Counted from the stretch's first letter, positions 14,285 to 34,800 are shown. The stretch: 64,000 nt of DNA from a virus (IMGVR_UViG_3300037423_000611:8501-72500); one strand, 5' to 3'. Translations and numbers: made by a program. The notes: generated by a model from the sequence alone, not told the origin.

Positions 14285-14289
14285 TCAAC

Positions 14290-14400
14290 CCCCATTGATC
14301 TATGTATCCTCCACATATATAAAAAGAGATGGGATCAAGAAGTGGAGGCCTCTCTTTACCACAGATGATCAGTCCGTGATTTCCCATCTATAAAATTATA
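14290..14400 (-). ncRNA. Structured 5' leader A (cis-regulatory RNA candidate)
   Basis: After TATAAT: outer stem AGAUGGGA/UCCCAUCU followed by a U-run; inner hairpin with loop CUGAUCA; loop CCUCCAC complementary to downstream GUGGAGG. Confidence 0.6.
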
Positions 14401-14431
14401 CCCAATATCAATCTACAATTCTACCAATCTA

Positions 14432-14644
14432 CTAAAATTCATCTTCACCTATTACATTAATGTTCTCAGACCTATAATCACATACTGTCATTCCCTTATC
14501 TTCAATCAACTTCTCAATATGTATATCCAAGCCTCTCGTCTTGCTATCAATCAGTTCTGATAAATCACTATTCACATTATGTTCGATATCAAAACTCAGT
14601 ACCATCTTAACATCCATAAATACTGTCGATTTTGCTAATTCCAT
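14432..14644 (-). CDS. Small acidic hypothetical protein (70 aa)
   Basis: ATG 14644 after a GGGAGG RBS; divergent from the RHH gene. Confidence 0.6.
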   Translation of the reverse strand: MELAKSTVFMDVKMVLSFDIEHNVNSDLSELIDSKTRGLDIHIEKLIEDKGMTVCDYRSENINVIGEDEF

Positions 14645-14822
14645 CGTTAAAACCTCCCTTGGAATAGTATTTCCTTCATGAGTTAATAGTAACATCATGT
14701 GCAAGCACCGTCAAGCACTTTATTTCAACTGATTGCACTTTTCAAATTTGTTAATATTTGATACAATAAAATTAATTAAAGTGCTTGCAACTTCTAGAGA
14801 GTACCTTAACCTTGGAGGTATT

Positions 14823-15008
14823 ATGGAAAAGAAAATGTTAAAAACGAGAACAAGATTTAGTAATTCGTTACGTAATGACTTACATGAAGAACTCCATAAA
14901 TTGTCTTCTGTAAGTGATATACCAGTGTCTAAACTTCTGGATAGAGCAGTGGAAATGCTATTAACTGATTTTGAATATCTGCCAAAGAAATCCCCTGACA
15001 AAGAGTAG
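14823..15008 (+). CDS. Ribbon-helix-helix DNA-binding protein
   Basis: GGAGG RBS; TRTRFSNSLRNDLHEELHKLSSVSDIPVSKLLDRAVEMLL fits the RHH pattern. Confidence 0.75.
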   Translation: MEKKMLKTRTRFSNSLRNDLHEELHKLSSVSDIPVSKLLDRAVEMLLTDFEYLPKKSPDKE

Positions 15009-15028
15009 GGGATTTTACATAAATAAAA

Positions 15029-15086
15029 ATACTCCACCTAAGACAATAAGCAGGAAAACCTGCTCAGTTCTATTAGGGGAGTATTT
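15029..15086. terminator. Long hairpin between convergent genes (likely bidirectional terminator)
   Basis: aatactcc.cctaa...agcagg aaaa cctgct...ttaggggagtatt. Confidence 0.6.
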
Positions 15087-16122
15087 AACCATTATCTTGT
15101 TGTTTCTTATTCTTCTCTTCTGCCATTTTACGCTTCATTTCTAATATTTTGTCTCTTGTTTCAGTTTTAGACTTTGGCTTGATGTAACTGGCTCTTGTTG
15201 TTTCTACTGACTTATGGTTAGCCATATCTGCTGCAAGTGCCAAATCTCCAGTCTTTTCATAAATTTCGTTAAGTGAGGTTTTACGAATACAGTGGCAGTG
15301 AAAATCTTCCAATCCTAATATGCGACCAATTTTTCTTACACGATCTTGGATTGTGCCATATGTCATTTGCTTGTACTCTCCATGATACTTTGTAATAAAT
15401 AAAGCATCGATTTCAAGATTATCCATTTCGGACTTTCTAATTTCCAACCATTCTTCAATTAAACTTTTTGTATTTTCCATAAAAGTAACTTCAACTCTAT
15501 ACCCACGTTTTTCACGGATCTCATTAAACATCATACTGTCCAAGTCCATTGAGGATAAAGTTAATTTAGATATTGCCCCAACCCTATTGGCACTTTCTAA
15601 CATAAGTGACCATATTATATTATCTTGGATGTCATACTTTTTTTCATCTAACAAACCTTCATTTATACGTTGAATTTCTTGATCGTTAAGATAATAGTGG
15701 TTAATGATTTTTTCGTCATTGGCACCTTTCATACGATCTAATTTCTTATCAAATGGATGGTGAGGAATCAATCTTCGTTTCATGCTCCATAGATAGAAAC
15801 TAGATACGGTACTAATTTTTGTATTGATAACCTTTTTATTATTCTTTAATATTTCTTGACAAAAATATATGTAACTCTCCATAATATCTACGGCATTATC
15901 CATGAACTCTTCACTATAAAAATTGATGTTATTCCATTCTTCGGCAATGAAAACCATGAAATGATTCATATAGTTTTGATATACTTTATAAGTGGTATCT
16001 TTTACATCGCGGTTCTTCATTATTGAACTTGTGAGGTATTTCTCATATATTTTTTTATTTTCATCTGAAATTAATGCCAATCGGTCAGGTGTAAAATATT
16101 TTATTTTTGTTACTTTAGCCAT
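15085..16122 (-). CDS. Tyrosine recombinase within the tail module (SPbeta YomM-like position)
   Basis: Catalytic pattern R (SANR), HxxR (HCIR), H (ANH) and Y (RASY). Confidence 0.88.
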   Translation of the reverse strand: MAKVTKIKYFTPDRLALISDENKKIYEKYLTSSIMKNRDVKDTTYKVYQNYMNHFMVFIAEEWNNINFYSEEFMDNAVDIMESYIYFCQEILKNNKKVINTKISTVSSFYLWSMKRRLIPHHPFDKKLDRMKGANDEKIINHYYLNDQEIQRINEGLLDEKKYDIQDNIIWSLMLESANRVGAISKLTLSSMDLDSMMFNEIREKRGYRVEVTFMENTKSLIEEWLEIRKSEMDNLEIDALFITKYHGEYKQMTYGTIQDRVRKIGRILGLEDFHCHCIRKTSLNEIYEKTGDLALAADMANHKSVETTRASYIKPKSKTETRDKILEMKRKMAEEKNKKQQDNG

Positions 16123-16146
16123 TCTTTCACCTCCTTATATCACACA

Positions 16147-16611
16147 TTATTTAATTTCATAACCCTTACTTTTCATTGCCTCTTTCAACGCCTCTACATG
16201 TTTACCACTTTGCTCTAAAGCGTCTCTCGCAGGTTCTACAAAGTGTCTAGGTTTTTCGTAACCATATCCCCATCTATCTTGAATTGAATAAGGATTTTTA
16301 CCTTCAATAATCGAAGCCACATAAACATCATCACCATGTCCATCTGTGCCTTCTCGTGTACTATAAATGGAAACGCCATTATCTACTGGTTCTGCTTCAA
16401 AGTTAGCAGGGTCAGTTAAACCACCATGCTCCATATGTCTCGTATATAGAGAACTAGGTGAAGGAGTGTAAGGTGTATAGACATTCTGTTCAATACTAGG
16501 AATTAGTTCATCCACTACAACTTTTTTAATTTTAGGGTCTTGTTGTAATGATTTTTCAGCATCCTTGAGAGCATATTTAAGCAATTCTTCTATAGAATTA
16601 AAATTAGCCAT
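16147..16611 (-). CDS. Putative tail-completion protein (HK97 gp10-like position)
   Basis: 154 aa; C-terminal PRHFVEPARDAL; synteny. Confidence 0.55.
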   Translation of the reverse strand: MANFNSIEELLKYALKDAEKSLQQDPKIKKVVVDELIPSIEQNVYTPYTPSPSSLYTRHMEHGGLTDPANFEAEPVDNGVSIYSTREGTDGHGDDVYVASIIEGKNPYSIQDRWGYGYEKPRHFVEPARDALEQSGKHVEALKEAMKSKGYEIK

Positions 16612-17110
16612 CTATATCATCTACATCATTATTTTCATTTTCATCAACCATTCCACCGACCTGCGCTTTGAACAGCAACTCACCAATCATCTCTTGTGCC
16701 TGTGGTAAGTTTTTACTCATTCTCTCTACAGCAGCATTGAGTTTCTGTAGTTCATTCGCATCATATGAATTCCATAATTCCTCAAATATATCTAGGTTTA
16801 TAAGGTTATGTACAGTTGCTACTAAGACCTCATGCCCACATTCGCCATAGGGTATATTTGAAAAATATTTCAAAGTCAATCCATACATCACATATGTTAA
16901 ATAGATCATCGTATCAGACGCATCCATTTTGCTTCCGTTAGTTTTGAGTTCGTTGATAATGGATAAATAGTCGATAAGTAACTTTTGTAATTGTAATGGT
17001 TGAAAATGTTCATTAATAATAAACTCAAAACCGCCAATTTCAACTTTACGTTTAGCGTTTAGTTTAGATGCTTCTTTACTCAAATTGCTTAGAGTAGGTT
17101 TTTTAGCCAT
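16604..17110 (-). CDS. Putative tail assembly chaperone
   Basis: 168 aa; GGAGG RBS; lies between tail tube and tape measure genes. Confidence 0.5.
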   Translation of the reverse strand: MAKKPTLSNLSKEASKLNAKRKVEIGGFEFIINEHFQPLQLQKLLIDYLSIINELKTNGSKMDASDTMIYLTYVMYGLTLKYFSNIPYGECGHEVLVATVHNLINLDIFEELWNSYDANELQKLNAAVERMSKNLPQAQEMIGELLFKAQVGGMVDENENNDVDDIDG

Positions 17111-17256
17111 AATAAATACCTCCTTGTGGTATGGGGTAGAGTGGGTATAGATAAAAGAAAAAGAGCCTACTGGTGAGTAGACTCTGTTTGGGTGTTATAA
17201 AATTATTTTAGTTATATATTATTTTATATTTACACTTGCGCATTGTGTAAATATAA

Positions 17257-18570
17257 TTATGAAGCATATTGTAAATACTCTTCTTTAACAGAAATATTAT
17301 TTTCCATTAATATTTTAGTTATAAATTTAATATCATGCCAAGGATCTTCACTGCTGATACGTAACATTGTATAGCCATGTTCTTTTACAAGTTTATCTTT
17401 TAGTTTATCGTTCTGCTGTGTTATAAGAAAACGTTCTTTTCCACCAAAATCCTTTACTGGTTCTCTATGTTGTCTTCCATCAAATTCAACTACTAAATTT
17501 AATTCGTCATAAAAGCCATCGCAAAATAATAATGAATTGAATACTCCTCTTAACCAATCCCATTTTTTCTGAGGTTCGTAATCTACCCCTGTAATCCTTT
17601 TAATTAAATCCAATACAATTTTTTCAGCCTTGTTACTTGTTGAATCAATTTTGTAACCATAAAACTTGCACAGTTCATACCATGATTTCTTATATTTTCC
17701 TCTATAACCACTTTCAGTAATATTTGATAACTGATTAAATAACTTTTTTGTCGGATATTGTCCATATTCCCTTTTACAATACTCAAATACCCTTATGAAT
17801 TCATTCTTATAATCTTCATCACTGTAAGTTGCAGACATACCACCTGTCAATTTTCCAGCTTCTTGTTTTGCTTTCTTGCCTCTTAGTTTATATTCTTTGT
17901 ATTCATCATCGGTAACAATTGCTTTAACAATTTTCTCATATTTTTTATTATTTAATCCAAAATGCGATTCACTAAAATATGCAGTGAAGGATATTTTACT
18001 ATATCTCATAAATTCACTATAAATAGGCACACCACCAATTAAGTCCTTAATTTCATAAAAATTATCAACTAACTCTTGCTCAGTGTAACGAAGTTTTCTT
18101 ATGTCGCAACTATCTCTAATACCATCTCTTCCTATTTCTCTGGTAATATTATCAGTAATATAAGGATGAGTTTTTTCGAACCTTTTTACATTCTGAGAAT
18201 TATTTTCATCTTTGTATTTTAAAAATTCATTGATTACATAAGAATGTAGTTGGTCATATTTACCATATTCTTTTACAATATCAGTCCAAGATATATTAAA
18301 ATAATTTGTATACGATTGCGCTTTAATCAAAGAAACTTCATTAAATCCTTTTGGAGTAATCGCTTGTGGAGTTTTTATAATACAAATAAGAAAATTATTT
18401 TCGAGTTCTTCTTCATTATATTTATTTTTAAATGTTTTCTTATGATGTTTATGTAAAGTTTCTTTCCTTACAATTTTTCTACAATACGAACAATACCTTG
18501 TTGCAATATCTACATCAAGCATTTCTATATTACATCTTTCACAGTTCTTACTTTTAATTTTCTTTGCCAT
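17257..18570 (-). CDS. Putative free-standing endonuclease with homing-endonuclease-associated helical repeats and a C-terminal Vsr/DUF559-like nuclease domain
   Basis: CERC/CSYC Zn motifs; repeats such as YSDEDYKNEF...YPTKKLF...SWYELCKFYG; C-terminal FCDGFYDELNLVVEFDGRQH. Confidence 0.7.
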   Translation of the reverse strand: MAKKIKSKNCERCNIEMLDVDIATRYCSYCRKIVRKETLHKHHKKTFKNKYNEEELENNFLICIIKTPQAITPKGFNEVSLIKAQSYTNYFNISWTDIVKEYGKYDQLHSYVINEFLKYKDENNSQNVKRFEKTHPYITDNITREIGRDGIRDSCDIRKLRYTEQELVDNFYEIKDLIGGVPIYSEFMRYSKISFTAYFSESHFGLNNKKYEKIVKAIVTDDEYKEYKLRGKKAKQEAGKLTGGMSATYSDEDYKNEFIRVFEYCKREYGQYPTKKLFNQLSNITESGYRGKYKKSWYELCKFYGYKIDSTSNKAEKIVLDLIKRITGVDYEPQKKWDWLRGVFNSLLFCDGFYDELNLVVEFDGRQHREPVKDFGGKERFLITQQNDKLKDKLVKEHGYTMLRISSEDPWHDIKFITKILMENNISVKEEYLQYAS

Positions 18571-18574
18571 TTTT

Positions 18575-18712
18575 ATCACTCCTCTGAATGATTCCTCTTC
18601 TACATAAAAAAATAGGAGAAACAGGTTAGAGGATGCCTGCTTTCAATCGAATTGATCAGATTCAATCTATCTCCTATTCAAATAATACCACCTTTATTTA
18701 ATTTAGTAAATG
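18575..18712 (-). ncRNA. Promoter plus structured 5' leader B
   Basis: TTTACT-17-TATTAT promoter; outer stem AAUAGGAGA/UCUCCUAUU plus U-run; inner loop CUGAUCA; loop UCCUCU complementary to downstream AGAGGA. Confidence 0.6.
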
Positions 18713-18730
18713 ATTATTTTACGTTTGTAA

Positions 18731-19498
18731 CTAAGTTAAGAACACTACATCATAGTAAACGTAGTCAGAACCTTGAGTTACAGCATACATATCTAATTCC
18801 ATATCCAATTTTGTAGCGTTCGTGCTCGAAAGCGCAAAGTTAAAATTAGGTTTGAATTTAGCATTGTAAATTGTAAATGCGCAAGCCTTGTCCGTACCAG
18901 TAACCTGATCTCTTGCAATACCTTCTCCGACAAGTTTCATAGGTTTAACAAACTTATTAGCTTTCATGGAGAATTTAGTGGCAGTATTAGGAGTTGCATA
19001 AGTATACCAAACTACAATCTGCTTACCATTATCTGCTGTATCTACAGTGATAGTTGTACCGCTAATTGAATACTGTCCTGCTGTTGGTGCAGATGCAGTT
19101 ACAGTTAATGGAGTGCCATTATCACGAGTGCCATCTAGATAGAATACAGAAGTAGTTGTTCCTGCCACTGGAGCAGAAGATAAAGTTGCCGTTCCACTAG
19201 CAACAGTTAACACTTCACGTTTTAAAACGTTCTGTGCTCCTGTTGCAACCGTATCTCCCATCAAAGATGCCATTAAGTTAATATCAACCAGTGGTAAAGA
19301 AAGTTTCATGCTAGAAACCTTTGAGTGGTCGAATGAAAGAAGTCTGTAATTCCCCTGACCTCCGGTTAAATCAATTCTTGAACCTTGGTTGTCTATCTCC
19401 GTAGTTTCCGCGTAATCGATATAAAAAAGCGGATCATTTGTTGAAAAATCTAAGCACTGTAGGTTTAATACTTCCTTTATCCCATATTGCATGGACAT
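18731..19498 (-). CDS. Major tail (tube) protein
   Basis: 255 aa, strong AGGAGG RBS, Thr/Ala-rich internal Ig-like insertion, synteny. Confidence 0.75.
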   Translation of the reverse strand: MSMQYGIKEVLNLQCLDFSTNDPLFYIDYAETTEIDNQGSRIDLTGGQGNYRLLSFDHSKVSSMKLSLPLVDINLMASLMGDTVATGAQNVLKREVLTVASGTATLSSAPVAGTTTSVFYLDGTRDNGTPLTVTASAPTAGQYSISGTTITVDTADNGKQIVVWYTYATPNTATKFSMKANKFVKPMKLVGEGIARDQVTGTDKACAFTIYNAKFKPNFNFALSSTNATKLDMELDMYAVTQGSDYVYYDVVFLT

Positions 19499-19521
19499 AA
19501 TGTAATTCCTCCTTATATAAT

Positions 19522-20244
19522 TTAAGTGTTTATTTTAGACGCTAGATGATTTTTTAGTTCAGATGAATTAGGGTCAGATGAATGTGGTAATAAATATATC
19601 TGAGTTTCATAATTCTCCTTCATCATCAAGCGAATATAAATCGTATATAATTGATACACTGTTAAATCCCAAACGTTGAACATGTTCAAATTTCCACTAT
19701 AGGTGGCGACAATGCTAATAATGTCTGATAAGTTCAAACCTTCTTCAGCGTTTTTTTCTTTTACTTTTTGCCTGAAATGTTTTAGTTTCTCAATTAATTT
19801 TGCTGCCTTTTCGTCATGAGGATTAAATTGTTCTTCCTCTTCTTTATTGTCTTTAATAAAGTTCTGTTGTTTAACTAATCGAACAATCTCTTCATAAATC
19901 TCTGGAGTTATAATCCGTTGATGATTTATATCTCCTAAATAAAAAAATCCGCCTTGATGTAAGTGGATTTCTTCTTTAAACAATATATGTAATGCATGGA
20001 TAATCACATTTCGAAATGTCTCATCGCTTAAACTGCAAACCATTAGCGTTTCAAATTTGCTTAATTTTTTACCTTCAATTTTTAAAGTTTCTTGATTGAA
20101 TATGATTGAAGAAAGATATTGATTATATTTTAGTTCACCAATTTTAGATATTTCATCCAACTTTAGTGGGTGAATTTTACCAAATCGATAAACTTCAATT
20201 GGTAGACCACGGAGCAACTTCAAATCCATATCATTGTTTCCCAT
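19522..20244 (-). CDS. Tail-region hypothetical structural/assembly protein
   Basis: ORF with AGGTGAT RBS in the morphogenesis operon. Confidence 0.6.
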   Translation of the reverse strand: MGNNDMDLKLLRGLPIEVYRFGKIHPLKLDEISKIGELKYNQYLSSIIFNQETLKIEGKKLSKFETLMVCSLSDETFRNVIIHALHILFKEEIHLHQGGFFYLGDINHQRIITPEIYEEIVRLVKQQNFIKDNKEEEEQFNPHDEKAAKLIEKLKHFRQKVKEKNAEEGLNLSDIISIVATYSGNLNMFNVWDLTVYQLYTIYIRLMMKENYETQIYLLPHSSDPNSSELKNHLASKINT

Positions 20245-20253
20245 GACTATCAC

Positions 20254-20727
20254 CTAATTCAATTCATTCATTTTATAAGCAATATAAATCCCAAAATACT
20301 TATCATTCACGTACATTTCATCCATTTTGTAAAATTGAGGTTTTCCAATTCCAATCCCTCTTTGTTGGTTCATCAACTTATCAATTTCAGACAAAATATA
20401 ATCTGACCTCAACCAACCGTAATCTGTTTGCATCAAGTTAATATGTACCAATACATTAATATAGATATATCCTGATTTAAATGAGGTGTTAACTAAGTCA
20501 TAGTTTCTAAATGACAAAGTGATATAATTGTTTGCATTATCATCTGCCACCGGAACAAATTTATAAGGATAAATTTTGTTGTAGATTAACACACTTGTAT
20601 CTTCAATATCGGGTTGATCTAAAAAATTAGATTGACTATAATTTAATGCCTTACAAATATTTTGAGAACCTAGCAATCGCATCATTATTGTTACTTTGTC
20701 ATTAGATAAATCCATTAATCGACTCAT
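20254..20727 (-). CDS. Putative tail terminator/completion protein
   Basis: 157 aa; RSDYILSEIDKLMN...GIG pattern; synteny. Confidence 0.55.
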   Translation of the reverse strand: MSRLMDLSNDKVTIMMRLLGSQNICKALNYSQSNFLDQPDIEDTSVLIYNKIYPYKFVPVADDNANNYITLSFRNYDLVNTSFKSGYIYINVLVHINLMQTDYGWLRSDYILSEIDKLMNQQRGIGIGKPQFYKMDEMYVNDKYFGIYIAYKMNELN

Positions 20728-20737
20728 TTTACACCTC

Positions 20738-21970
20738 CTAAATCAGACTCTTCATCTGTACTCTAAACCAACCAATGATACTGTTGTCACTCTGCAACAT
20801 AGTTCTTACCTGAACATATCCATTCGTAGCATTATTATTTACAACTGTACAACTCTTACCATCTTGACTTGATATTTTTGCTAATGTAGTAGTGGACACT
20901 TTATCGTCAGCAAATATATCAAATGTGACCAATTGGTCATTTACAACCACACCGTTATTGGTAACAGAACTAGTATACGTACTAGTTTGATTCTGTTTAA
21001 TTACACTAGACCCACTTATACTCACACTGTAATTATCCGTCACTACAGCAACCACATTTACACCTATTGTAGCGTAAATGGATGTATCGCTTGTCATCTC
21101 AACAGTAATTGTAGCACTACCACTCGTCACAGTAGTAACAAGTCCATTGCTATCTACGGTAGATATTGCAGTATCACTACTTGTATAAGTTAAACTTGGA
21201 CTACTCACTATGTTCCCATTGTCTGTAACAGTTATACTAAGTTGTAATGTGGAATTTGCGTTCATGGATACAGATGAACCATTAGTTATGGAGATTGCAT
21301 AGTTATGTGTAATATAATCACACACTCTTAAATCTACATTGTCAGTGGCCTCGTTTACTTGATCCTCTTCTAATGTTAGGTTAATCAGACCTGTGTTCAA
21401 ATTGCTAATGGAATTGACTTTCCAACAACGATTACCATCAAATATAAAACGCTGACCCTTTTTAATTTTAGATGTGTCTGCGTTATTCTGTATGGCAATA
21501 TATCTCCGTTCACTACCTAAAATGAGATAGTTATCTTGGTTGATCCCAAGGCTATTGTTATATGTTGTTGTAATGTAGAATGGGGCTTCTTTGATGGAAC
21601 CTGTGGAATCTTGCCATTTGATGGAAGAGACACACAACTCAATACTCCCTCGTCTATATATGCCACCCATATCATCTACAATCAAAGTCAACCAATAATC
21701 ATTTCCCCATTTAACCAAATCTCCAACAGATAAGGATGTAGAAAGTGCATCATCTGGTTTAGTGGTCAATCGTTTAAGAGATTTAGATTCTGAGTCATCA
21801 ACTATCCACACATCTGAGGGTGTGGGAGAAGAGTTGATGGTTACTTGGTAATAGGAAGGGGAATCATAAAATCCTGAAAGTATGCTTTGTTTCAGTGATT
21901 CCTTTTGAGAACCTAATATGCTTCCACCTCTTGCATCCAACAATTTTCTATAAGTGTCAAGATAACTCAT
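20738..21970 (-). CDS. Head-closure-like protein with C-terminal Ig-like (Big_2-type) domains
   Basis: Ig signature LTYTSSDTAISTVDSNGLVTTVTSGSATITV. Confidence 0.7.
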   Translation of the reverse strand: MSYLDTYRKLLDARGGSILGSQKESLKQSILSGFYDSPSYYQVTINSSPTPSDVWIVDDSESKSLKRLTTKPDDALSTSLSVGDLVKWGNDYWLTLIVDDMGGIYRRGSIELCVSSIKWQDSTGSIKEAPFYITTTYNNSLGINQDNYLILGSERRYIAIQNNADTSKIKKGQRFIFDGNRCWKVNSISNLNTGLINLTLEEDQVNEATDNVDLRVCDYITHNYAISITNGSSVSMNANSTLQLSITVTDNGNIVSSPSLTYTSSDTAISTVDSNGLVTTVTSGSATITVEMTSDTSIYATIGVNVVAVVTDNYSVSISGSSVIKQNQTSTYTSSVTNNGVVVNDQLVTFDIFADDKVSTTTLAKISSQDGKSCTVVNNNATNGYVQVRTMLQSDNSIIGWFRVQMKSLI

Positions 21971-21981
21971 ATGACACCACC

Positions 21982-22386: not shown

Positions 22387-22412
22387 TTCAACACCTCTCT
22401 TTATACAATAAA

Positions 22413-22856: not shown

Positions 22857-22906
22857 TAGAATAAATCCTCCTTATAATAAATAATTATTTTAATAGCAAT
22901 AAATAT

Positions 22907-22938
22907 ACAGAGGGGACAGGGGGATTAATCCCCTCTGT
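22907..22938 (-). terminator. Hairpin after major capsid gene
   Basis: acagagggga / tcccctctgt 10-bp inverted repeat followed by an AT-rich tract. Confidence 0.6.
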
Positions 22939-22948
22939 CAAAATTTAA

Positions 22949-23914: not shown

Positions 23915-23951
23915 CTATGTATTCCTCCTATTATATAATTGATAATTTTAA

Positions 23952-24422: not shown

Positions 24423-24468
24423 CGTATAATTCCTCCTTATAATTTAAAAAAATTTATTTTATATTTAA

Positions 24469-26089: not shown

Positions 26090-26102
26090 AGTATCACCAC
26101 CT

Positions 26103-27623
26103 TTAATCTGAAGGGGATGGATTATCATTGGACCCATTGCCCTGACTCTTTGCCGTATTATCATTGGTTGGATTTGAATTAGACGGTCTTCCACCTGAAT
26201 TATCCCCTGATTGCGTGTATGAGGTAATATGAATAGGAAGAATTTCATCCAATTTAAGAACTTCATTCTCATATTTAACTTGGGCAAGCCAGTGATCGAA
26301 GTCATATCCGGCAGACTCAACATAATGTTTGAGACTTCCACGACCTTTAAGATATAAAGATTCGGCTTGTTTAAAACCTGTCTCTTTGTCGAGAATAGTT
26401 GCACGACTAAATTTAATTTTAGGATTAAAGTTGCCACTTGGCACAAGGAAACTCATATATTCATTTAGAGCCTCTTCTACATCTTTAACTAAATAGAAAA
26501 TAATAGAATAAATTTTCTCTACGTTTATGGTGCTGGAACCAAAACTTTGTCCATTACCACCACCTGAGTTAAGGCTCTGACTATAACCCAACTTTTTGTA
26601 AATATCACTATCAATTCGTTCCCATATTTCTTTTGGAAAAGTAGTCATATTTATTTCCAACTCCTGTATTTCTACAAAAGAAGGAACGGTTAAAGGCGCA
26701 GTGGAAGCATTGTCCGTAGAAGCACTATCATATTTCTTCTGTAATAGGCTTTTAAGATTATTGTGATATTGTTGCACAAGTTCTTTTGGAACAGGCAAGC
26801 TTGTTTTCCCATCTTGTCCTATCAAATTACCAATCTTTTGCACGATAATTTGATTAGTTATACGATCAGCTAATGCCTTCTCAGTTTTCTCAAGTAAATC
26901 TTTATGTATGATCGAACTTAAGGCAGGAATGCAATAAGGAATGCCAAATGGTTCATTCCTTGAACCTCTTAATTTAAACACTTGTGTTTTTTTGATATCC
27001 AATGGAACATATCTTTTAGATGAGTCCTTTTTGTAGGCATTGTAGATACCTATAGTTACTTCATCAGGAGCAGCATTAATTTGTTGCTCTAATCCATCCT
27101 TTAATTTAAATGAATCAAAGTAACTTAAATCAAACAAAACCTGCCACTTTCCATCAACCATGTATTCAATTCTTATCTGCTCATTATCCAAAAATTGGAT
27201 ATATTTATTTTTACGATTATACCAAACGCATGTTCCTTCTTGAATTACAGTAAATATGGTGTCGCGTGTGAGCCTGTCAACTTTAATGGAATTGAGGAAA
27301 GTATCTATAGTTTTCTTTTTTGAATTAAAACTTTTTTGCTGCATATTTTCCCAAAGAATAGAATAACTAAGAATTGGGAGAACGTTAAAAAGATCGTAAA
27401 CGTCAGTTACGATTCCTTCTTTGTTGTAGTAATATTTACTTAATTTAATTAATTGTTTCCTGTAGCGTGGAGGATTCTTTAGCCATGTCAGGAGGTCTTT
27501 GATGCTTACATCAACTAATCCTGCACCACTTGAAAAAGACTGAATCCATTCAGCAAACGAAGCCAATTCATAAAAAGATTGGTCTATTAAAGATTTATTT
27601 TCTATTGTAATCACCCCTTTCAA
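26103..27623 (-). CDS. Portal protein (YonE-like)
   Basis: 506 aa directly after the terminase; RGSRNEPFGIPY motif; low-complexity C-terminal tail. Confidence 0.8.
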   Translation of the reverse strand: MKGVITIENKSLIDQSFYELASFAEWIQSFSSGAGLVDVSIKDLLTWLKNPPRYRKQLIKLSKYYYNKEGIVTDVYDLFNVLPILSYSILWENMQQKSFNSKKKTIDTFLNSIKVDRLTRDTIFTVIQEGTCVWYNRKNKYIQFLDNEQIRIEYMVDGKWQVLFDLSYFDSFKLKDGLEQQINAAPDEVTIGIYNAYKKDSSKRYVPLDIKKTQVFKLRGSRNEPFGIPYCIPALSSIIHKDLLEKTEKALADRITNQIIVQKIGNLIGQDGKTSLPVPKELVQQYHNNLKSLLQKKYDSASTDNASTAPLTVPSFVEIQELEINMTTFPKEIWERIDSDIYKKLGYSQSLNSGGGNGQSFGSSTINVEKIYSIIFYLVKDVEEALNEYMSFLVPSGNFNPKIKFSRATILDKETGFKQAESLYLKGRGSLKHYVESAGYDFDHWLAQVKYENEVLKLDEILPIHITSYTQSGDNSGGRPSNSNPTNDNTAKSQGNGSNDNPSPSD

Positions 27624-27626
27624 TGG

Positions 27627-29408
27627 TTAGTTGTAGAAGAAGAAATTGTAATCATCGTGATTATCTTCTTTAAACAATGACCTTTCCAATTCAGATGCGA
27701 TAAAGTTTCCGTATGTTACAGAACTATAACGGTCTTTGCGCTTGGATCTTGGCTCCTTGAGTTTAATTAAACCACTATCTGTTCTTTCTCCTTCAAGGTT
27801 AATCATTTCGTTAATAAGAAGAGTGGTTTGAATAAATGGTGCTTCAAAAGTTGTTTGTATGTCCAAAGGCAAATCTTTAAATTTACTAAGTTTCTTTAAA
27901 AACTCTTTTCCTTCAAGTTCACTTGTAAGTAATTTTACTTTACCTCTTTTTAATCCATCTCGAAGAGTTATAGCGCATTCACTATTGAATTGAGCATTAC
28001 CCTTGATGCTATAAATAACTTTTTTGGCTTGAGGATATGCGCATCTATCGCTCATTTTTTCGTCATTTATACAATTCCAAGGTTCGTATTCTTTATTTCT
28101 GTCTTTGTCATAAAGTGGTTGAACTAATTGGTCATAAATTCCAAGACCAATACTCTGTGTATCTAGAACAAGATAATCACAATCAAAGTCTTCATATAAC
28201 TGTCTAATTCTTGTGGCCTGCGTAACAGTATGACCGCCCACCATGCTCTCCATGTAAACAATATGGCGGTCAAAACCCTTAGAAGTTGGAATTAATCTAA
28301 AAATAGTGTACACACTGGCATCGTTCTCTTTTCCTGCCATACCTGCAATATCACAACTTATGAGTCTAATTTCGCCCATTCTCTTTGTTTCATATGTGAA
28401 ATTTTTATCTTTGACTATTGAATAATAATCTTTAGGGTATAAAGGCCTTGGCAACTTTCTATTTTTCTCAAGTTCCTCAAATTTAAAGAATGCTTTTTCT
28501 GATTCACCAAAGAATAGACATTCCATCTCCATATACCATGCGACCTCATCGAAATCATCTTCTGACATTTCATCTTTTACTTGTTCTTCATCAAGTAAAT
28601 TCTCTTTAATTGCCAATTGGTACGGCAAACCACAAACAAAATATTGTTTACCTTCTGACATTGAATTAAAGAAACTCTTTAACTTTTCCCATGACCAATG
28701 GTGTTGGTACCACGCGGAACTTAAATATATTTCCTTGTTTCTTTCTTTCAAGTGTGCATATTCGGGTTTATTTAAATATTTTGGCTGTCTCGGAGCAGAA
28801 AGGAATTTACGCAAAACAGTGTTTATAATACTTAAATCAATCATTCGAAACTCGTCAGCGATAATACAGTTTGCTCTTTTACTTCGCGCATTCTGATTCG
28901 AAGCGACTACTTTTATCCAACTACCATTGTGAAATTCTACCTTTGGGTCATTTGATGAAGTACTTAAATCACTAATCTCTCTATGTAAGTTAGGCGAATT
29001 TTTCCTAAGATCATCTATCTTTTCAATTACTTCTCTTGCTTGACCTTTAGTACCACTGGCTATGACAATTTTCGTTTCAGGCCAAAGTATTGCCCGAACG
29101 CAACAGTAGATCGCAGTAATCCAAGTTTTTCCTTGACCTCTAGAAGCAAGATACATAAAATAGTGATTGTAATTCATCATATACATCAAAATAACTTGAA
29201 ATAATTTTAGATGTATACCTAAATATTCTCTTACAAATCTATGTGGATTTGCTCTATAGAAACTTGCCCAAATACCAATACCATTCATTAATTTATCTGA
29301 CTTTGTTAATTTGTCGTTGTTTTTGTTAAAATTACGACCTTTATTAAATATATTGATACCTTTGTGTTCTTTGTTTCTTTGAACTTGGAAGTTTTGAATT
29401 CCAGCCAT
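27627..29408 (-). CDS. terL: Terminase large subunit
   Basis: Walker A ASRGQGKT, Walker B IIADEF, nuclease motifs SCDIA and KDRYS. Confidence 0.92.
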
Positions 29409-29409
29409 T

Positions 29410-30345
29410 CTATACCACACCCTTATCCGAATCTTCCTCAAACTCAGGTGCTTCCACTTTATATTTATTAATTTCTTCATCGTACTCTTTTGAATGTTCA
29501 TTTTTAATTCCTAGCATCTTACTCAAATGACCAAGGAACCAAACATTGACATACTTACGTACTCCATCTACGTCTTTCCATGCTTCATCCGGTTCTGGAA
29601 TAGGCTTTTCATTCTCATACTTTTTAATAAGAGTGCCAAATGTAGCCTGTTCAACAGCATTTGCACCTGTTTCTTGGGCAGGTTTAATATTAGCACTTCC
29701 AAGCAAATCTTGTAGGGTTTTTAATTCTTTATCAACCGAATCGCCTTTTTCACGTCTCTTTTTAATAGTCAAACGCTGTTGTGCTGCTTCTTGAAATAAT
29801 AATTCCATAGCATAAGAGTCACATTCGTAAGAGTTCAACAATCTTTGATATTCATTGGTTAAAAAATAATACTCATCTTGGTTCAGACCTCTTCCCCAAA
29901 ATTCTTGTAACTCATACAACTCTTCTGTGGTGAATAATGGATTATTATTTTTTATATCTAGTTCAATATTATCTTTGTCTACTGTTTTATAAACAATTTG
30001 TTGATTTGATGCATTGAAATCACTATCAGCAAATGTTTTTCCTCTATACTGAGGAAAAGAACTCAATTGAGGTATGTATTTAGTCCAATCACTTCCTCTG
30101 CTTATCCACAAATCCATGATTAGAGGTTTATTTAAAATAGCCAAGACCATTTTTACACGATCTAAATATCCAACACTGTCTTTTTCACCAATGTAATCAT
30201 TTAAACATTTTTTACAAATTACAGATTTTTGAGTTGAAAACAACTCATTCTCATTCATATAATAATTAGAATCAGCTAATTGTCTTTTACACTTTAAACA
30301 TTCCAATTTTTCAGATTGGGGTTTTTGAACTTTTTTTCGTGCCAT
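29410..30345 (-). CDS. Putative terminase small subunit
   Basis: CLKC/CKKC Zn motifs; directly upstream of terL. Confidence 0.6.
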
Positions 30346-30386
30346 TGTCTCACCACCTTTTTTGCAAAACAAAACAAAAAGAGGTG

Positions 30387-31667
30387 TTATAAGCACACCT
30401 CTTGCTGGTTATCTAATAATTCTTTTCTAAATTGATAATAGCTTTTTAAATCTCCGTAATCATAACCAATTTGATATTGGCTACACTTTACATCTCCTGA
30501 ATCAATATCAAATTCTATCCATGAATGACCAGACTGAAAATATTTTTTCGCATAACTAATCATTTCAATTATTTTATTGTCAGATGGTAAACAATCTTTT
30601 CTTGATGTTATTGCAATTTCCTTCCACCCTCTTCGTCTCAAAGCATAGCGTCTTTCTCTTTCATATACTTCAAATTCTTCTTTTGTCTTTTGACCAAAAT
30701 GTATTGCTAACCAATGTCCCGATCCATTGTATTCAATATAAAATTTATCTTCTAGGAATGCCACATCCAATGAAGATGTAAATACTGGATAATTTATCTT
30801 TCCACTTAGTAAATTAGCTATATGTCGCTGTTGCATTGAAACAGGTGCAGTTTGGTTATTATACATTGTTTGCCTTCTTTTAGCATCAGCACATCTTTGA
30901 CATCTAGCTCCATTAAGTAAATTGTATAGAATAGTGTAATCTTCTTTTCCACACTCGCACCTATATCTCATTGCCGTGGAACTATTTATATATTCTTCTT
31001 CAGTAATTAATAACTCGCAGTTTTCATCTTTAAATAGTTCAACAACTTCTTCAAATGGTACTCTATTCTTTTCAGAAATCATTCGAAGTTTACATACGTT
31101 ACATCTTTGACCTGCTTGAAACTTATCAAATGAAGTATTCCCTTCATTTCCACAATCACATATATAATTTAACTTTTCTTTGGCGCTATTGTATGTCTTA
31201 GAAAGTAATATACAGCCACTAGATTCAAATATATTTTTAACATAATCATATGTTAACTTTAAGTTTTCACTAATCTTTTTTAGACCGCAGTTATAACACA
31301 ATCGGCCAGAAGACAGTGCCATTAAACTAATTTTATTTTTCTCTCCGCAAACACATATGAAGTCCAACAATTCTGTGCTGTTTTTGTAAGTTGTGGATAG
31401 AAGAGCGCATCCAACCTCTTCAAATCTACGCTTAACTTCATCATAAGTTAATCTTCTAATGTTCCCACACTTTACTTTCTTGCATTCTTCACACCTTTTA
31501 CCTCGTTTAAAATTATCAAAGTTTGTTGTAGATTTATTCCCACAAACACAAATATAATCAAGTATATCTTTCTGTTTTGTAAAAGAAGTGCTTAACAAAA
31601 AACATCCTTGTTCTAAAAAATAATTAAATATTTCTTCATAAGTCCAGCGCTTTCTTTTATTTTCCAC
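30387..31667 (-). CDS. Putative free-standing endonuclease with about five Cys-rich Zn-ribbon repeats and a C-terminal Vsr/DUF559-like domain
   Basis: Repeats of type GC.LLS..Y......L.YIC.CG.......F..GxRC..C; C-terminal SLDVAFLEDKFYIEYNGSGHW. Confidence 0.7.
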   Translation of the reverse strand: MENKRKRWTYEEIFNYFLEQGCFLLSTSFTKQKDILDYICVCGNKSTTNFDNFKRGKRCEECKKVKCGNIRRLTYDEVKRRFEEVGCALLSTTYKNSTELLDFICVCGEKNKISLMALSSGRLCYNCGLKKISENLKLTYDYVKNIFESSGCILLSKTYNSAKEKLNYICDCGNEGNTSFDKFQAGQRCNVCKLRMISEKNRVPFEEVVELFKDENCELLITEEEYINSSTAMRYRCECGKEDYTILYNLLNGARCQRCADAKRRQTMYNNQTAPVSMQQRHIANLLSGKINYPVFTSSLDVAFLEDKFYIEYNGSGHWLAIHFGQKTKEEFEVYERERRYALRRRGWKEIAITSRKDCLPSDNKIIEMISYAKKYFQSGHSWIEFDIDSGDVKCSQYQIGYDYGDLKSYYQFRKELLDNQQEVCL

Positions 31668-31671
31668 ACCT

Positions 31672-31806
31672 CATCAATCCCCCTGTCAGATTGTTTCCTG
31701 ATATGTAAAAAGTAGAGGAGAGGGTTCAGGAATACCCTCAATCAAGGCTCGCGACTTCCTTGGTTTTCCCCTAAGTAAAATTTACCACATAATTCATAAT
31801 ATGTAT
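31672..31806 (-). ncRNA. Promoter plus structured 5' leader C
   Basis: TGG-TAAAAT extended -10; outer stem UAGGGGA/UCCUCUA plus U-run; inner loop containing UCGCGA; loop UUCCUGA complementary to downstream UCAGGAA. Confidence 0.6.
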
Positions 31807-31901
31807 ATATTTTTTTTAAAGATTACTAATAATTTTATATCTATAAAAAGAATCCTAACACAGTGTCCACCATTCAGGTAGACACTGAATAATACTCTTT
31901 T

Positions 31902-32246
31902 CTATTGTTCTTCATCTCTATCACTAATACTCAATATACTAGCCAATGATTTCGATACACTATGCAACATTTCAACTTTAGCATCTTTCGCACCCTGAAA
32001 ATAACCATCATAATATAATTGCGACAATACACCTAGCATTGCATCTTGTGATACATCAAATGCTTCCATAGCCTTGTAGAACGCTGCCTCTATAATTTCA
32101 TAATGGTCAACATCCGTGTATTGGTGAGTAAGTTCGTGAATCTTCATGCTTGTGCATGTGTCACATATATGTTCAAACTCACGGTCATTGTTATTAGGGA
32201 AGTTTACAATTTTATCTGACAAGGGGAGACTCCTTTTATTCATCAT
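31902..32246 (-). CDS. Hypothetical protein
   Basis: ORF track; true start may be TTG near 32222 after AAGGAG. Confidence 0.55.
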   Translation of the reverse strand: MMNKRSLPLSDKIVNFPNNNDREFEHICDTCTSMKIHELTHQYTDVDHYEIIEAAFYKAMEAFDVSQDAMLGVLSQLYYDGYFQGAKDAKVEMLHSVSKSLASILSISDRDEEQ

Positions 32247-32520
32247 AGGTTACATGATTTTTGTTAAGCATTTCAACAGAACGTAGAATCATTGCAAGCA
32301 ACAAATCCTCTTCTACCATATTTCCTATCTCGTCCACGAGCATTTCTATTGCTCCAGTTAATTCATCTTTAAAATTCTGTTTCTTCCTTAAGTCATATAT
32401 CATCTCAACATAGTTGTCGATAAGTTGTGAATAACTGAGAGACCTACGCTTTATTGTTACAAATGTTAAATCTCTATCATCTTCATAATAAAGATCATCA
32501 TGTTCTTGACTCATAGGCAT
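32236..32520 (-). CDS. Hypothetical protein
   Basis: ORF track; AGGTG RBS. Confidence 0.55.
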   Translation of the reverse strand: MPMSQEHDDLYYEDDRDLTFVTIKRRSLSYSQLIDNYVEMIYDLRKKQNFKDELTGAIEMLVDEIGNMVEEDLLLAMILRSVEMLNKNHVTYDE

Positions 32521-32533
32521 TGCACCTACTTAC

Positions 32534-33751
32534 TTATTTTAGTTTTAAATCATATGTAGTAGTGATTCCTTCACCATTTTCCAAAAGCAACATTTTAACT
32601 GCTGGTTTAGCAGCCTTTTTCAATTTCATAGCATAATCGTCTACTCCACAGAATGATGGTGCTTGTATGAAATCAATATTCATATTTTCATTCATGCCAA
32701 TAGTTTTGGAATGATTGTGATGCAGATGTCCAGATACCACAAGATCAATTTTATGTCCGTATGAAATCATGTAATCTTTTAATGATTGCTCCATGTTCTT
32801 TTCATATTGCCCATGTACCATTAATGTCTTAACACCTGAAATCTCTCGATAATGGAAATTTCCACAATTATGTATGTTAATATTTTTATTATCTTTAAGC
32901 ATAGACATTAAAAACCAATTGATTACACGTTCAAAATTTTCATCGTCAAACTCACCGCGAGATGAATTTAAGGTTCTCGTTTCTGAGTGATTGCCTAAAA
33001 TAGAATAGTAGTCGATTGTCGTATACTTAGAAAGTTCGTTTAACCAATAAACCATGAAGTTTGCATATTCCATTGTTTGGTCAACTGCACCCATCTTTAA
33101 CTTTTGCAATTGACTCGCTCTAAGAATGCCATCTATCGCATCTCCAAGATTACTTAGATGTAAGTGATTCAAGTTATCTTTTTCAAGTTTAGATACAATC
33201 CAATCCAATGCTTTCCACATTCTACTTTTGAATACTTTGGGGTTGTATTCATTTATCACTTCTCCCAACAGACCTCTAACGATTTCATCTTTTCCGAAAT
33301 GTTGGTCAGCAAGAAGAACAAGAGGGGAGACATGGAGGTTTTCTTTAGTTTGTCTCCGTGATGGTGGGGTTGGTTTATCTAATTTTTCAATTGCAGAACT
33401 TAAAGATTCAAAAATTTGCTCTGAACGAGATTGTTCACGAATCCATTTATTGATTTCAGGCTTAAGCGATTGTAGTTTATAGCGTTCTTTTTGCAATTGC
33501 AGTTTTGCTTCTTCTATCTCATCAAGAATAGAGTGGTCGGCTATATTTTCTTTAATAGCTTCTTCATATCCCTCAGAATACGCATACCACCATTTGCGAT
33601 ATTTTGATTCTCCCCATTTATCACCTGTAACTTTGTTAATAAGATCAGTTATATCTTGCCAAGATATAGAGTAAGTATCCTTATTGCTACATAAGCGAAT
33701 TTTATATTGTTTAGTGTTTTCGTTTGGAAGTTTGTTTAATTGAAATTGCAT
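32534..33751 (-). CDS. Calcineurin-like metallophosphoesterase (SPbeta YonJ-like)
   Basis: Motifs ADQH, GDAIDG, GNH, HG and GHLH. Confidence 0.85.
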   Translation of the reverse strand: MQFQLNKLPNENTKQYKIRLCSNKDTYSISWQDITDLINKVTGDKWGESKYRKWWYAYSEGYEEAIKENIADHSILDEIEEAKLQLQKERYKLQSLKPEINKWIREQSRSEQIFESLSSAIEKLDKPTPPSRRQTKENLHVSPLVLLADQHFGKDEIVRGLLGEVINEYNPKVFKSRMWKALDWIVSKLEKDNLNHLHLSNLGDAIDGILRASQLQKLKMGAVDQTMEYANFMVYWLNELSKYTTIDYYSILGNHSETRTLNSSRGEFDDENFERVINWFLMSMLKDNKNINIHNCGNFHYREISGVKTLMVHGQYEKNMEQSLKDYMISYGHKIDLVVSGHLHHNHSKTIGMNENMNIDFIQAPSFCGVDDYAMKLKKAAKPAVKMLLLENGEGITTTYDLKLK

Positions 33752-34671
33752 AATTCACTCCCTAAGATATTGTTTATATTATTAAATTCAAAGTAAGGTA
33801 TTCTTAAAAGTTGAATATTATTTTCTTTGCAATATGTATTTTTAATTTCATCATTTTCTTTTGTATAATTTAAACTTTTTTCTCCACCAAAATAATCTAC
33901 CGATTCAAAATGCTGTCTTCCATCATACTCTATTAATAGCGACAATTTATTTTTATCATCGAATATTGCAAAATCAAAAGGTAGTGGGTTTACTCTTCTG
34001 CAATCATGAATCCTATACTGTGATATATAATTTATTTTATTTTCAATTAAAAATTCCTCAATCATTACCTCTCCTCTAGATTTGATACAATTGGGGCACC
34101 TTTTGTCGCGTAAAAAATTATGAGGAGTAACAGGATACTCGTAACCACATGTAGTATGTTTCATATTCATCTTTATATTTGCTTCTATGTATTCGCCTAA
34201 AACCTGATATTCTCCATTTGTTAATTCAAAAACTTCCTTGATAAATTTTTCAGTCGTTTTTAAGGATTTATTTTTACATACCCCACATCTTCTACCTATT
34301 AAAAATTGACCAAAGTTTGTCTTTGCTTGATTACCACATGTTAGGCATTCATATACAAAAGGGGTTCCAGAATCCTTGTATTCTGATTTGATTAAGTATC
34401 CGTTATTAAATAGATAATCTTCAACAAATTCCTTAGTATATTTCGTCCTACATTCTGAATTGTAATCATTGCTACATTCTTTACATCTGTGACCTTGTTT
34501 AAAATTATCCCAAAGTTGTTCCATTATATGACCATTTGCGCATTTTAAAACTATAAATAACCTATTCCTACCGTTACTTGCTGTTTTATAAAACATGTCC
34601 AACAATGATACATTAATTCTATTATCAAATATAAATTGTTCAATATCTTGTCTTGTTTTTCTTTTTGACAC
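33736..34671 (-). CDS. Putative free-standing endonuclease with Zn-ribbon repeats and a C-terminal Vsr/DUF559-like domain
   Basis: GTG start after GGAGG; CANGH/CKEC, CLTCG/CGVC and CGY/CPNC repeats; SRGE...LPFDF...LIEYDGRQH. Confidence 0.75.
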   Translation of the reverse strand: MSKRKTRQDIEQFIFDNRINVSLLDMFYKTASNGRNRLFIVLKCANGHIMEQLWDNFKQGHRCKECSNDYNSECRTKYTKEFVEDYLFNNGYLIKSEYKDSGTPFVYECLTCGNQAKTNFGQFLIGRRCGVCKNKSLKTTEKFIKEVFELTNGEYQVLGEYIEANIKMNMKHTTCGYEYPVTPHNFLRDKRCPNCIKSRGEVMIEEFLIENKINYISQYRIHDCRRVNPLPFDFAIFDDKNKLSLLIEYDGRQHFESVDYFGGEKSLNYTKENDEIKNTYCKENNIQLLRIPYFEFNNINNILGSELCNFN

Positions 34672-34675
34672 TAAA

Positions 34676-34800
34676 TTTCCTCCTCTCAATATAAAAAGAC
34701 TGATTCTATCATCACGACAGTATCAGCCTCGAAAGGAGGTAGAGGGGATATCATCACGACATGCCATACCTCTTTATAATTTTTCATTGGGCAATTGACT
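34676..34800 (-). ncRNA. Structured 5' leader D with a duplicated 13-nt motif
   Basis: UGUCGUGAUGAUA occurs twice (34749-34761, 34707-34719), each in a hairpin. The second hairpin GGCUGAU/AUCAGUC is followed by UUUUU. Confidence 0.55.

Follow-up and report, generated by a model that had tools for sequence, protein, structure and literature searches.

Do the four free-standing nuclease genes of an SPbeta-like phage carry a common RNA leader, and what could such a leader do? The window analysed here is a stretch of 64,000 nt of viral DNA (IMGVR_UViG_3300037423_000611:8501-72500) from a contig of 72.5 kb in all. The four genes are homing-endonuclease-like (PHROG 559, 12131, 9084), and a first-pass annotation had placed before them four leaders, A to D, of one fold. 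Leaders A, B and C are genuine conserved three-way-junction RNAs before three of the four genes, with coordinates, minus strand and motifs as claimed; leader D folds into two hairpins and is a separate element. An RNA-based brake on nuclease expression is the most economical reading of these leaders.

Three leaders of a single Y shape

Folding gave one Y shape for all of A, B and C. Each is a three-way junction of 61-70 nt on the minus strand, in which a -10 box is followed by a helix, P1, that closes onto a U-tract. A palindromic hexamer lies in the P2 loop, and the P3 loop has its complement in a box just beyond the U-tract. The recognisable -10 boxes claimed for the three leaders were confirmed. 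The elements of cassette A are as follows.

14395-14400, minus strand: -10 box TATAAT, ending 5 nt before P1 (sequence)
14327-14389, minus strand: leader A three-way junction (folding, contig scan, model R3)
14321-14326, minus strand: U-tract CUUUUU, directly after P1
14308-14314, minus strand: box 1 GUGGAGG, complement of the P3 loop (duplex -13.8 kcal/mol)
14289-14294, minus strand: box 2 UGGGGG (duplex with the P3 loop -11.5 kcal/mol, one G-U)
12608-14278, minus strand: nuclease gene A, likely ATG at 14278 (PHROG 12131 homing endonuclease match at the N-terminus)

P1 of leader A is AGAUGGGA/UCCCAUCU (8 bp), the P2 loop is CUGAUCA and the P3 loop CCUCCA(C). The leader scores 57.6 bits with R3, a covariance model made from A-C and their relatives. 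Box 2, located by folding in a small hairpin, is likely the Shine-Dalgarno sequence (SD) of nuclease A. Cassette B has the same order of elements.

18682-18690, minus strand: extended -10 box TGgTATTAT (sequence)
18610-18679, minus strand: leader B three-way junction (folding; int-alpA 27.8 bits)
18593-18598, minus strand: box 1 AGAGGA (duplex with the P3 loop -9.0 kcal/mol)
18580-18585, minus strand: box 2 AGAGGA, the SD of nuclease B (duplex -9.5 kcal/mol)
17257-18570, minus strand: nuclease gene B, ATG at 18570 (PHROG 9084/559)

Here P1 is (G)AAUAGGAGA, 10 bp, and runs into U7; the P2 loop is again CUGAUCA, and UCCUCU is held in the P3 loop CAUCCUCUAA. The P3 loops of leaders A and B also cross-pair, each with the boxes of the other leader. 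The third cassette is C.

31779-31787, minus strand: extended -10 box TGgTAAATT (sequence)
31713-31773, minus strand: leader C three-way junction (folding, contig scan, model R3)
31695-31701, minus strand: box 1 UCAGGAA (duplex with the P3 loop -9.7 kcal/mol)
31678-31685, minus strand: SD region CAGGGGGA (sequence)
30387-31667, minus strand: nuclease gene C (PHROG 559/681/12131)

Leader C (40.1 bits with R3) has a P1 of 7 bp, UAGGGGA/UCCUCUA, with CUUUUU right after it, UCGCGA in the P2 loop, and UUCCUGA in the P3 loop AUUCCUGA. This loop would match its own SD only weakly, with four Watson-Crick pairs plus G-U. The entire cassette C is missing at the corresponding site of a related contig.

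Single-sequence folding energies of A-C were modestly better than those of shuffled sequences (z -1.5 to -2.3), so that folding alone is little proof. A custom scan of both strands of the whole 72.5-kb contig gave no further compact junction closing onto a T-run, and within the window the covariance model detected A, B and C only (next best match 17.9 bits, E 0.12). The idea that fragments of a group I intron surround the nuclease genes was rejected: Rfam gave zero intron matches in the window, and the nuclease genes lie between ORFs, not inside them. Simple terminators are found behind nuclease genes B and C, and behind the ORF next after A.

The leader family and its relation to int-alpA

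In MAFFT alignments A1, A2 and A7 of leaders A-C, P1 was out of register; these alignments were therefore not used for models, and a model was bootstrapped from a single sequence instead. A covariance model of B alone recovered both other leaders, A with 36.7 bits and C with 14.9. With the model made from A-C alone, an unrelated contig yielded three copies, and a homing endonuclease gene lies downstream of each. Extending the covariance-model search beyond the window, as the first-pass annotation had suggested, the wider model R3 matched 67 times, in 33 of 50 records, with nearly all copies before nuclease genes.

In 48 of 53 distinct copies an ORF, 80 aa or longer, begins 0-67 nt downstream; the searched records had been picked for holding a related nuclease gene, which biases this association, although whole records were scanned. 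Forty of these 48 ORFs cluster with the window nucleases, four are GIY-YIG, one is HNH and three are without clear type. At least three unrelated nuclease types are represented among the free-standing homing endonuclease genes that follow the leader, and the tie to such genes first noticed in the window extends to the family.

Pairing was present in 94.3% of cells across the 53 copies, a count somewhat inflated by the fitting of the alignment (A12) to the model. Double-sided changes were seen in 23 of 23 pairs, and all three helices covary. The covariation score was 0.732, compared with 0.213 for shuffles (0 of 500 reached 0.732) and about 0.1 for slid controls. The fold, the P2 palindrome and the P3 pairing of A-C are far above chance. 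The earlier view that RNA structure is selected, rather than a primary sequence common to the leaders, is supported by these changes.

A cultured carrier is Sporosarcina phage Lietuvens, in which a copy without promoter and without U-tract lies upstream of ORF4. Megablast and blastn detected no close relatives among GenBank phages. SPbeta and 13 SPbeta-like IMG/VR records gave no convincing copy, 151 sampled Bacillota genomes gave none under strict filters, and no true copy was seen in PBS1, Internexus, Lactococcus AM9 or a Staphylococcus Twort-like phage, the PBS1 matches being plain terminators.

The leaders had been thought to lie outside any named Rfam family, and this has to be corrected. 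Judged by covariance-model matches, leaders A-C are a divergent branch of Rfam int-alpA (RF02996), whose gathering threshold is 35.8 bits. At that threshold the window itself had no int-alpA match; below it, leader B reached 27.8 bits, and A and C gave nothing at E up to 10. In a relative, L068, a phage copy upstream of a nuclease gene scored 39.9 bits with RF02996, above threshold. R3 matched the same L068 copy at 28.5 bits (E 0.0099), and this one copy, recognised by both models, links the window copies to int-alpA by homology. Another relative scored 35.2 bits with RF02996. The Rfam model picked out only two places in the 20 records holding the leader family.

Like A-C, int-alpA is a three-way junction closed by P1 and followed by a U-run, and its C/U-rich P3 loop (CCUU) is matched by a purine tail (AAGGG) after that run. 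The int-alpA consensus has UAG in J12 and GAAAA in J23. Most relatives stand close to it, with UA(G) and GA(A/C)AA; in the window J12 and J23 read UA and GAA in B, A and AAA in A, and AAAC and AUU in C. The consensus P2 of int-alpA is short, with the 4-nt palindrome ACGU in its loop, whereas the phage leaders have longer P2 loops with 6-nt palindromes and are AT-rich. The phage leaders also adjoin homing endonuclease genes, and not integrase or alpA.

We take int-alpA to be one of the candidate motifs of Weinberg et al. 2017. The main text of that paper (PMC5737381) does not name it. In the literature searched, neither the two-box design nor a nuclease link is described for int-alpA, and no functional test of it was found. 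Two other assignments were discarded. A hammerhead or other small ribozyme does not fit, as CUGAUCA lies in a loop and not in a junction, and there were zero Rfam matches; a box C/D or K-turn reading of leader A came down to snoRNA noise (E 3.8-4.8).

Loops, boxes and restraint of the nucleases

Box 1 lies 8-20 nt beyond P1, and box 2 overlaps the SD region. The claimed complementarity of the second loop to a segment past the U-tract was borne out in A-C, and the pairing is kept through sequence change. Between the P3 loop and the proximal box, a Watson-Crick run of at least 6 was found in 33 of 50 copies (null 4%) and one of at least 7 in 20 of 50 (null 0.2%). Between the P3 loop and the SD region, a run of at least 6 occurred in 22 of 50 (null 7%). 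By the criteria used here, 39 of 53 copies have a P3 loop that fits both sites, the nearby decoy box as well as the ribosome-binding region, and 14 of 53 are without one of them. Some loop and box sets are not purine-rich; one copy, for instance, has an 11-nt UUUGUUAACCG loop that both of its boxes match. The proximal box would usually be a decoy copy of the ribosome-binding region, the P3 loop being able to pair with either. This two-site nature of the downstream segment had been missed before.

We consider that the leader is a 5′ module of homing-endonuclease cassettes in Bacillota phages, braking translation in cis and, in this phage, adding termination; we would give this reading a probability of about 55%. 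The P3 loop would act as an anti-SD whose pairing with box 2 blocks ribosome loading, and box 1 would be a decoy competing for the same loop. The balance between the two boxes would keep nuclease translation low on every leader-bearing transcript. A cis brake would be a portable RNA module that keeps mobile nuclease genes harmless to their phage host. The weak match of loop and SD in copy C and the 14 copies missing one site count against it.

Attenuation, as first proposed, fits A-C: a G+C-containing stem, P1, is followed in all three by U5-U7. It does not extend to the family, as a T-run of at least 4 follows P1 in 21 of 53 copies and a full -35/-10 promoter is present in 7 of 53; terminator and promoter are therefore not family-wide. 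The U-tract is the least conserved feature of the leader family. In the window phage, P1 and U5-U7 may serve as an intrinsic terminator just after the -10 box, so that host-polymerase transcripts from the cassette would mostly stop as an RNA of about 70 nt. No antiterminator competing with P1 was seen in A-C, the pairing of loop and box lying beyond the U-tract and leaving P1 undisturbed. The phage has a polymerase of its own.

38495-41302: YonO homologue

SPbeta late genes are transcribed as one operon by YonO (PMC5467207). A polymerase of the YonO type is expected to ignore hairpin terminators because its flap domain is missing, and the YonO-like late polymerase of this phage would probably read through P1 and the U-tract.

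If P1 and the U-tract did no more than terminate transcription that enters the nuclease gene from outside, with functionless loops, then U5-U7 behind P1 in A-C and the simple terminators noted above in cassettes B and C and after the ORF that follows A would be accounted for. We regard such a plain insulator as very improbable: the U-tract is just what the family conserves least, and a terminator needs neither the pairing of loop and box nor the palindrome, both of which are kept by covariation.

The palindrome is of at least 6 nt in the P2 loops of 42 of 53 copies, against a null of 8%, and in the P3 loops of 2 of 53. Its letters vary, with at least nine different hexamers, so that what persists through covariation is a self-complementary hexamer in a loop of about 7-10 nt. 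Two leader RNAs can probably kiss through this loop, and, if the model is true, bacteria or phages would offer an example of self-recognition by kissing loops. In a purely cis model the conserved palindrome has no job, which speaks against the cis brake and for a main product acting in trans. On this second account an sRNA of about 70 nt, ending at the U-tract without box 1 and therefore with a free P3 loop, would dock by its P2 palindrome on the full-length mRNA and mask the SD; expression would depend, as with P1 C4, on the amount of short RNA relative to long. A palindromic loop is the sole way for two identical sense RNAs to recognise each other, and box 1 would neutralise the loop in cis. 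The -10 box, 5′-terminal stem and good U-tract of A-C, the perfect TTGACA-17-TATAAT promoters of some relatives, and the Rfam type of int-alpA, 'Gene; sRNA', agree with it. The trans route is nevertheless rather unlikely: the canonical T-run is missing from most members, the Sporosarcina phage copy has neither promoter nor U-tract, and kinetics favour pairing in cis. Moreover, cassettes A and B are not orthogonal, because they have a common P2 loop and cross-pairing loops and boxes.

It is unlikely that the leader is a self-recognising, dose-sensing brake. Leader RNAs of one cassette would meet through the palindromic P2 loop, either a short terminated RNA with a full-length mRNA or one mRNA with another. 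The higher the phage copy number and the level of leader RNA, the less nuclease each genome would then yield. Mobile nuclease cassettes would in that case carry RNA autoregulation of a new, sense-sense class, and the int-alpA motif would have its first function.

The conserved junction strands (UAG-type J12, GA(A/C)AA-type J23) suggest a specific tertiary core, and the RNA could be a protein-binding platform, for autoregulation by the nuclease, for a host or phage RNA-binding protein, or for RNase III, whose substrate would be the stack, about 22 bp long, that two kissing P2 arms form. According to the reference list of PMC3014915, I-TevI autorepresses, albeit at the DNA level. We find a platform improbable: the downstream nucleases come from unrelated families and so have no common binding domain, and a sequence-specific dimeric protein would fix the letters of the palindrome, which vary.

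The nuclease gene partner, the two-box anti-SD design and the covarying palindromic loop make int-alpA function directly testable, and the copy in cultured Lietuvens makes bench work feasible.

Comparable systems and leader D

C4 and CI are small structured RNAs from the 5′ part of their target's transcript, co-directional with it, with loops that pair with downstream sites overlapping the ribosome-binding region. C4 is excised by RNase P, controls an antirepressor and has no palindromic loop. Leaders A-C resemble them as co-directional leader RNAs with a loop complementary to a downstream ribosome-binding region, and the likeness drawn in the first-pass annotation is apt as a way of working. 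They are unrelated in sequence and fold, the Rfam C4 model gave no match to the leaders, and unlike C4 the leaders have a palindromic P2 loop and a nuclease gene downstream instead of an antirepressor. The source for the P1/P7 C4 and P4 CI immunity RNAs is Citron and Schuster 1990, as cited in PMC8201110.

In T4-type phages I-TevI, mobE and segB are restrained by RNA structures that mask the ribosome-binding site (PMC3014915). As in the role proposed for A-C, a selfish nuclease is kept low at translation start. Those hairpins are simple, local and different for each gene, and lack a decoy box or palindromic loop, whereas A-C are a conserved three-way junction moving between unrelated nuclease genes. 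The HIV-1 dimerisation initiation site is a 6-nt palindrome in a hairpin loop of 7-10 nt, whose letters vary between lineages with self-complementarity kept; its virus is a eukaryotic retrovirus, and its task there is packaging of the genome. The P2 loops likewise combine a varying hexamer with constant self-complementarity, and leader dimers are predicted from the sequence.

The element before the fourth nuclease gene is built differently.

34692-34790, minus strand: leader D, two hairpins with identical tip UGUC-GUGAU-GAUA (folding)
34739-34731, minus strand: anti-SD CCUCCUUUC
34687-34679, minus strand: SD GAGAGGAGG
33736-34671, minus strand: nuclease gene D, likely GTG start at 34671 (PHROG 559, E 1e-76)

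Two hairpins in place of a three-way junction, and zero matches by the covariance models run against it, rule leader D out as a family member. The palindromic hexamer loops claimed for all four leaders hold for A and B (UGAUCA) and for C (UCGCGA), but UCGUGA of D lies mostly within the stems (UGUC-GUGAU-GAUA) and not in an open loop. The second hairpin of leader D is a terminator, nested between the anti-SD and the SD.

Nuclease genes in an SPbeta-like late region

The window comes from a 72.5-kb virus record whose terminase shares 68% identity with YonF of Bacillus phage SPbeta. Gene order on the minus strand is that of the SPbeta late region: a 935-aa YonO-like protein (38495-41302, minus), 24% identical to SPbeta YonO across ~500 residues and by its sequence likely a single-chain late RNA polymerase, is followed by YonN, YonJ, YonG, terminase, portal and tape measure. 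The late genes, which in SPbeta form one operon transcribed by the YonO-type polymerase (PMC5467207), have four extra genes placed between them. All four match homing-endonuclease PHROGs (559, 12131, 9084, 681) and have in common a C-terminal xEYDGxxH-type nuclease domain preceded by variable zinc-ribbon repeats. Their leaders are as follows.

14327-14389, minus: leader A, a three-way-junction RNA before nuclease gene A (12608-14278)
18610-18679, minus: leader B, a three-way-junction RNA before nuclease gene B (17257-18570)
31713-31773, minus: leader C, a three-way-junction RNA before nuclease gene C (30387-31667)
34692-34790, minus: leader D, a different element before nuclease gene D (33736-34671)

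In the related contig L012, the site of the 1.5-kb cassette C is occupied by a 50-nt spacer, and a nuclease gene lies elsewhere; by this comparison, therefore, the cassette is mobile. Simple terminator hairpins (minus) are located after nuclease genes B and C (17162-17185 and 30379-30403) and after the ORF next downstream of gene A (12142-12167), so that the cassettes seem to be bracketed by terminators within a region that is a single late operon in SPbeta. The nuclease C stop codon sits in the loop of its terminator hairpin. Short upstream ORFs overlap two of the nuclease starts: AUG GGG GUU GAU UGG UAA at A (14296-14276, minus), whose end UAAUG includes the likely start codon, and AUG AGG UGU GGA AAA UAA at C (31674-31657, minus), overlapping the GUG start. 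The overlaps could reflect translational coupling or chance. A further small ORF, the fifth to resemble a nuclease (173 aa; 35091-35612, minus; PHROG 8048, HNH endonuclease), lies directly upstream of a yonK-like gene.

Fold and relatives of leaders A, B and C

On folding, A, B and C each formed a compact Y, a junction of two hairpins (P2 and P3) closed by an outer stem (P1) with U5-U7 immediately after it. The stems, the CUGAUCA and UCGCGA loops and the loop-to-downstream complements described in the first-pass annotation were exactly confirmed for these three. Single-sequence energies were only modestly better than those of shuffles (z -1.5 to -2.3), and the case thus depends on comparison with other copies. 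A structure scan and covariance model revealed no further such structures within the contig.

With a covariance model from B only, A scored 36.7 bits and C 14.9 bits. With the model from A-C only (R2), an unrelated IMG/VR contig yielded three copies; all three immediately precede homing endonuclease genes, at different sites of the structural module. On 69 loci fetched by nuclease homology R2 gave 34 matches, nearly all of them preceding the nuclease gene on its own strand. When 50 whole records were scanned with a wider model built from 18 sequences (R3), 33 of them held matches, 67 in total; in the window's contig R3 again picked out A, B and C only. In 53 distinct copies, pairing holds for 94.3% of cells, and both-sided changes are seen in 23 of 23 pairs. 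The selection on structure proposed earlier is supported by a covariation score of 0.732, compared with 0.213 for shuffles (0 of 500 reached it) and ~0.1 with partners slid; fitting the alignment to the model favours the structure, and the margin is very large all the same.

The association with nuclease genes also held, in records that had been chosen for holding a related nuclease gene and were then scanned whole: in 48 of the 53 copies the match was followed, after 0-67 nt, by the start of an ORF of 80 aa or more. Forty cluster with the window nucleases, four are GIY-YIG, one is HNH and three are unclear; thus, the leader accompanies unrelated nuclease families rather than a single gene lineage. 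Three of the five copies lacking such an ORF are the window's own short loci. At L002 (IMG/VR 3300024999_000265, 2292-3456) the nuclease gene that follows a leader copy is broken into two overlapping ORFs (140 and 269 aa). It has probably been frameshifted and is decaying, and its leader is still intact.

The first-pass annotation recognised no named Rfam family, and at gathering thresholds Rfam matched nothing in the window. At relaxed thresholds, however, B matched the int-alpA motif (RF02996) at 27.8 bits. It shares the motif's architecture, its C/U-rich loop, its U-run and its purine tail, and its junction letters (UA and GAA) resemble parts of the consensus (UAG and GAAAA). A relative that precedes a nuclease gene (L068), also matched by R3, scored 39.9 bits, above the 35.8 threshold; these matches tie the leaders to int-alpA. 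In 20 records holding the leader family, the Rfam model matched in 2 places only. The int-alpA consensus P2 loop already contains a 4-nt palindrome, ACGU. A literature search, the original supplement being outside its scope, found no paper testing int-alpA or tying it to nuclease genes. At 5951-6455 of the L068 phage contig, a skipping-rope RNA (RF02924, 66.9 bits) adjoins four tRNA genes.

Loop pairing and a candidate translational brake

The P3 loop is complementary to a box 8-20 nt past P1 (box 1), with a Watson-Crick run of at least 6 in 33/50 copies (null 4%) and at least 7 in 20/50 (null 0.2%). With the Shine-Dalgarno (SD) region the corresponding counts were 22/50 (null 7%) and 12/50 (null 0.5%), and 39 of 53 copies have both sites. 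Some loop/box triplets are wholly non-purine-rich, such as an 11-nt UUUGUUAACCG loop with two matching boxes, so the complementarity is not mere SD-likeness. In predicted duplexes, the A loop has two alternative partners, GUGGAGG (-13.8 kcal/mol) and, at the SD, UGGGGG (-11.5); for the B loop these are two AGAGGA boxes (-9.0 and -9.5). The C loop pairs with UCAGGAA (-9.7) and matches its own SD weakly.

The best-supported reading of the leader is a cis translational brake, in which the P3 loop would act as an anti-SD and box 1 as a decoy, nuclease output being set by the balance between the two pairings. Masking of the ribosome-binding site is an established restraint on homing endonucleases in T4-type phages (PMC3014915).

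Of the 53 P2 loops, 42 hold a perfect palindrome of at least 6 nt, compared with 8% of composition-matched random loops and 2/53 P3 loops; a further 9 hold one of 4 nt. The hexamers are of nine or more kinds, mostly UNNNNA. The letters vary while self-complementarity is kept, which argues for RNA-RNA self-pairing rather than a protein site. Since a purely cis model gives the palindrome no job, a trans or dimer model, by analogy with P1 C4, is kept alive beside the cis brake.

The attenuation proposed earlier fits the U-runs of A, B and C, but a T-run of at least 4 follows P1 in only 21/53 copies. A full -35/-10 promoter precedes the leader in only 7/53. The cultured Sporosarcina phage Lietuvens carries a copy (3184-3267) that lies between terL and ORF4, the latter annotated as an HNH endonuclease; this copy shows the junction, both boxes and a UCAUGA loop, and it lacks U-tract and promoter alike. 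Judged from these comparisons, termination is thus an add-on in the window's phage, and what makes up the element's core is the loop-box logic. In this phage, besides the cis brake, host-polymerase transcripts would be terminated at P1 and the U-tract, and the YonO-type polymerase would presumably read through.

Leader D

Leader D, earlier counted as a fourth member of the family, forms two hairpins instead of a Y and was matched by no model. Both hairpins are tipped by the same UGUC-GUGAU-GAUA, and the 13-mer UGUCGUGAUGAUA occurs twice in the leader (34692-34775, minus). On folding, the second hairpin is a terminator nested within an anti-SD:SD helix (CCUCCUUUC / GAGAGGAGG). This hairpin and a terminator at L012 2115-2154, which precedes a different nuclease gene, share 90% identity over 40 nt.

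The 15-mer CTGTCGTGATGATAG has 65 exact matches in IMG/VR (L156-L220), about the number expected by chance. At least 5 pairs spanned the motif in 47 of the 65 (MFE criterion); by eye, in ~25 of those 47 the motif caps a clean, extended hairpin whose lower stem is unrelated and perfectly paired, and a T-run often comes next. CTGTCGTGATGATAG may be a separate hairpin-tip motif.
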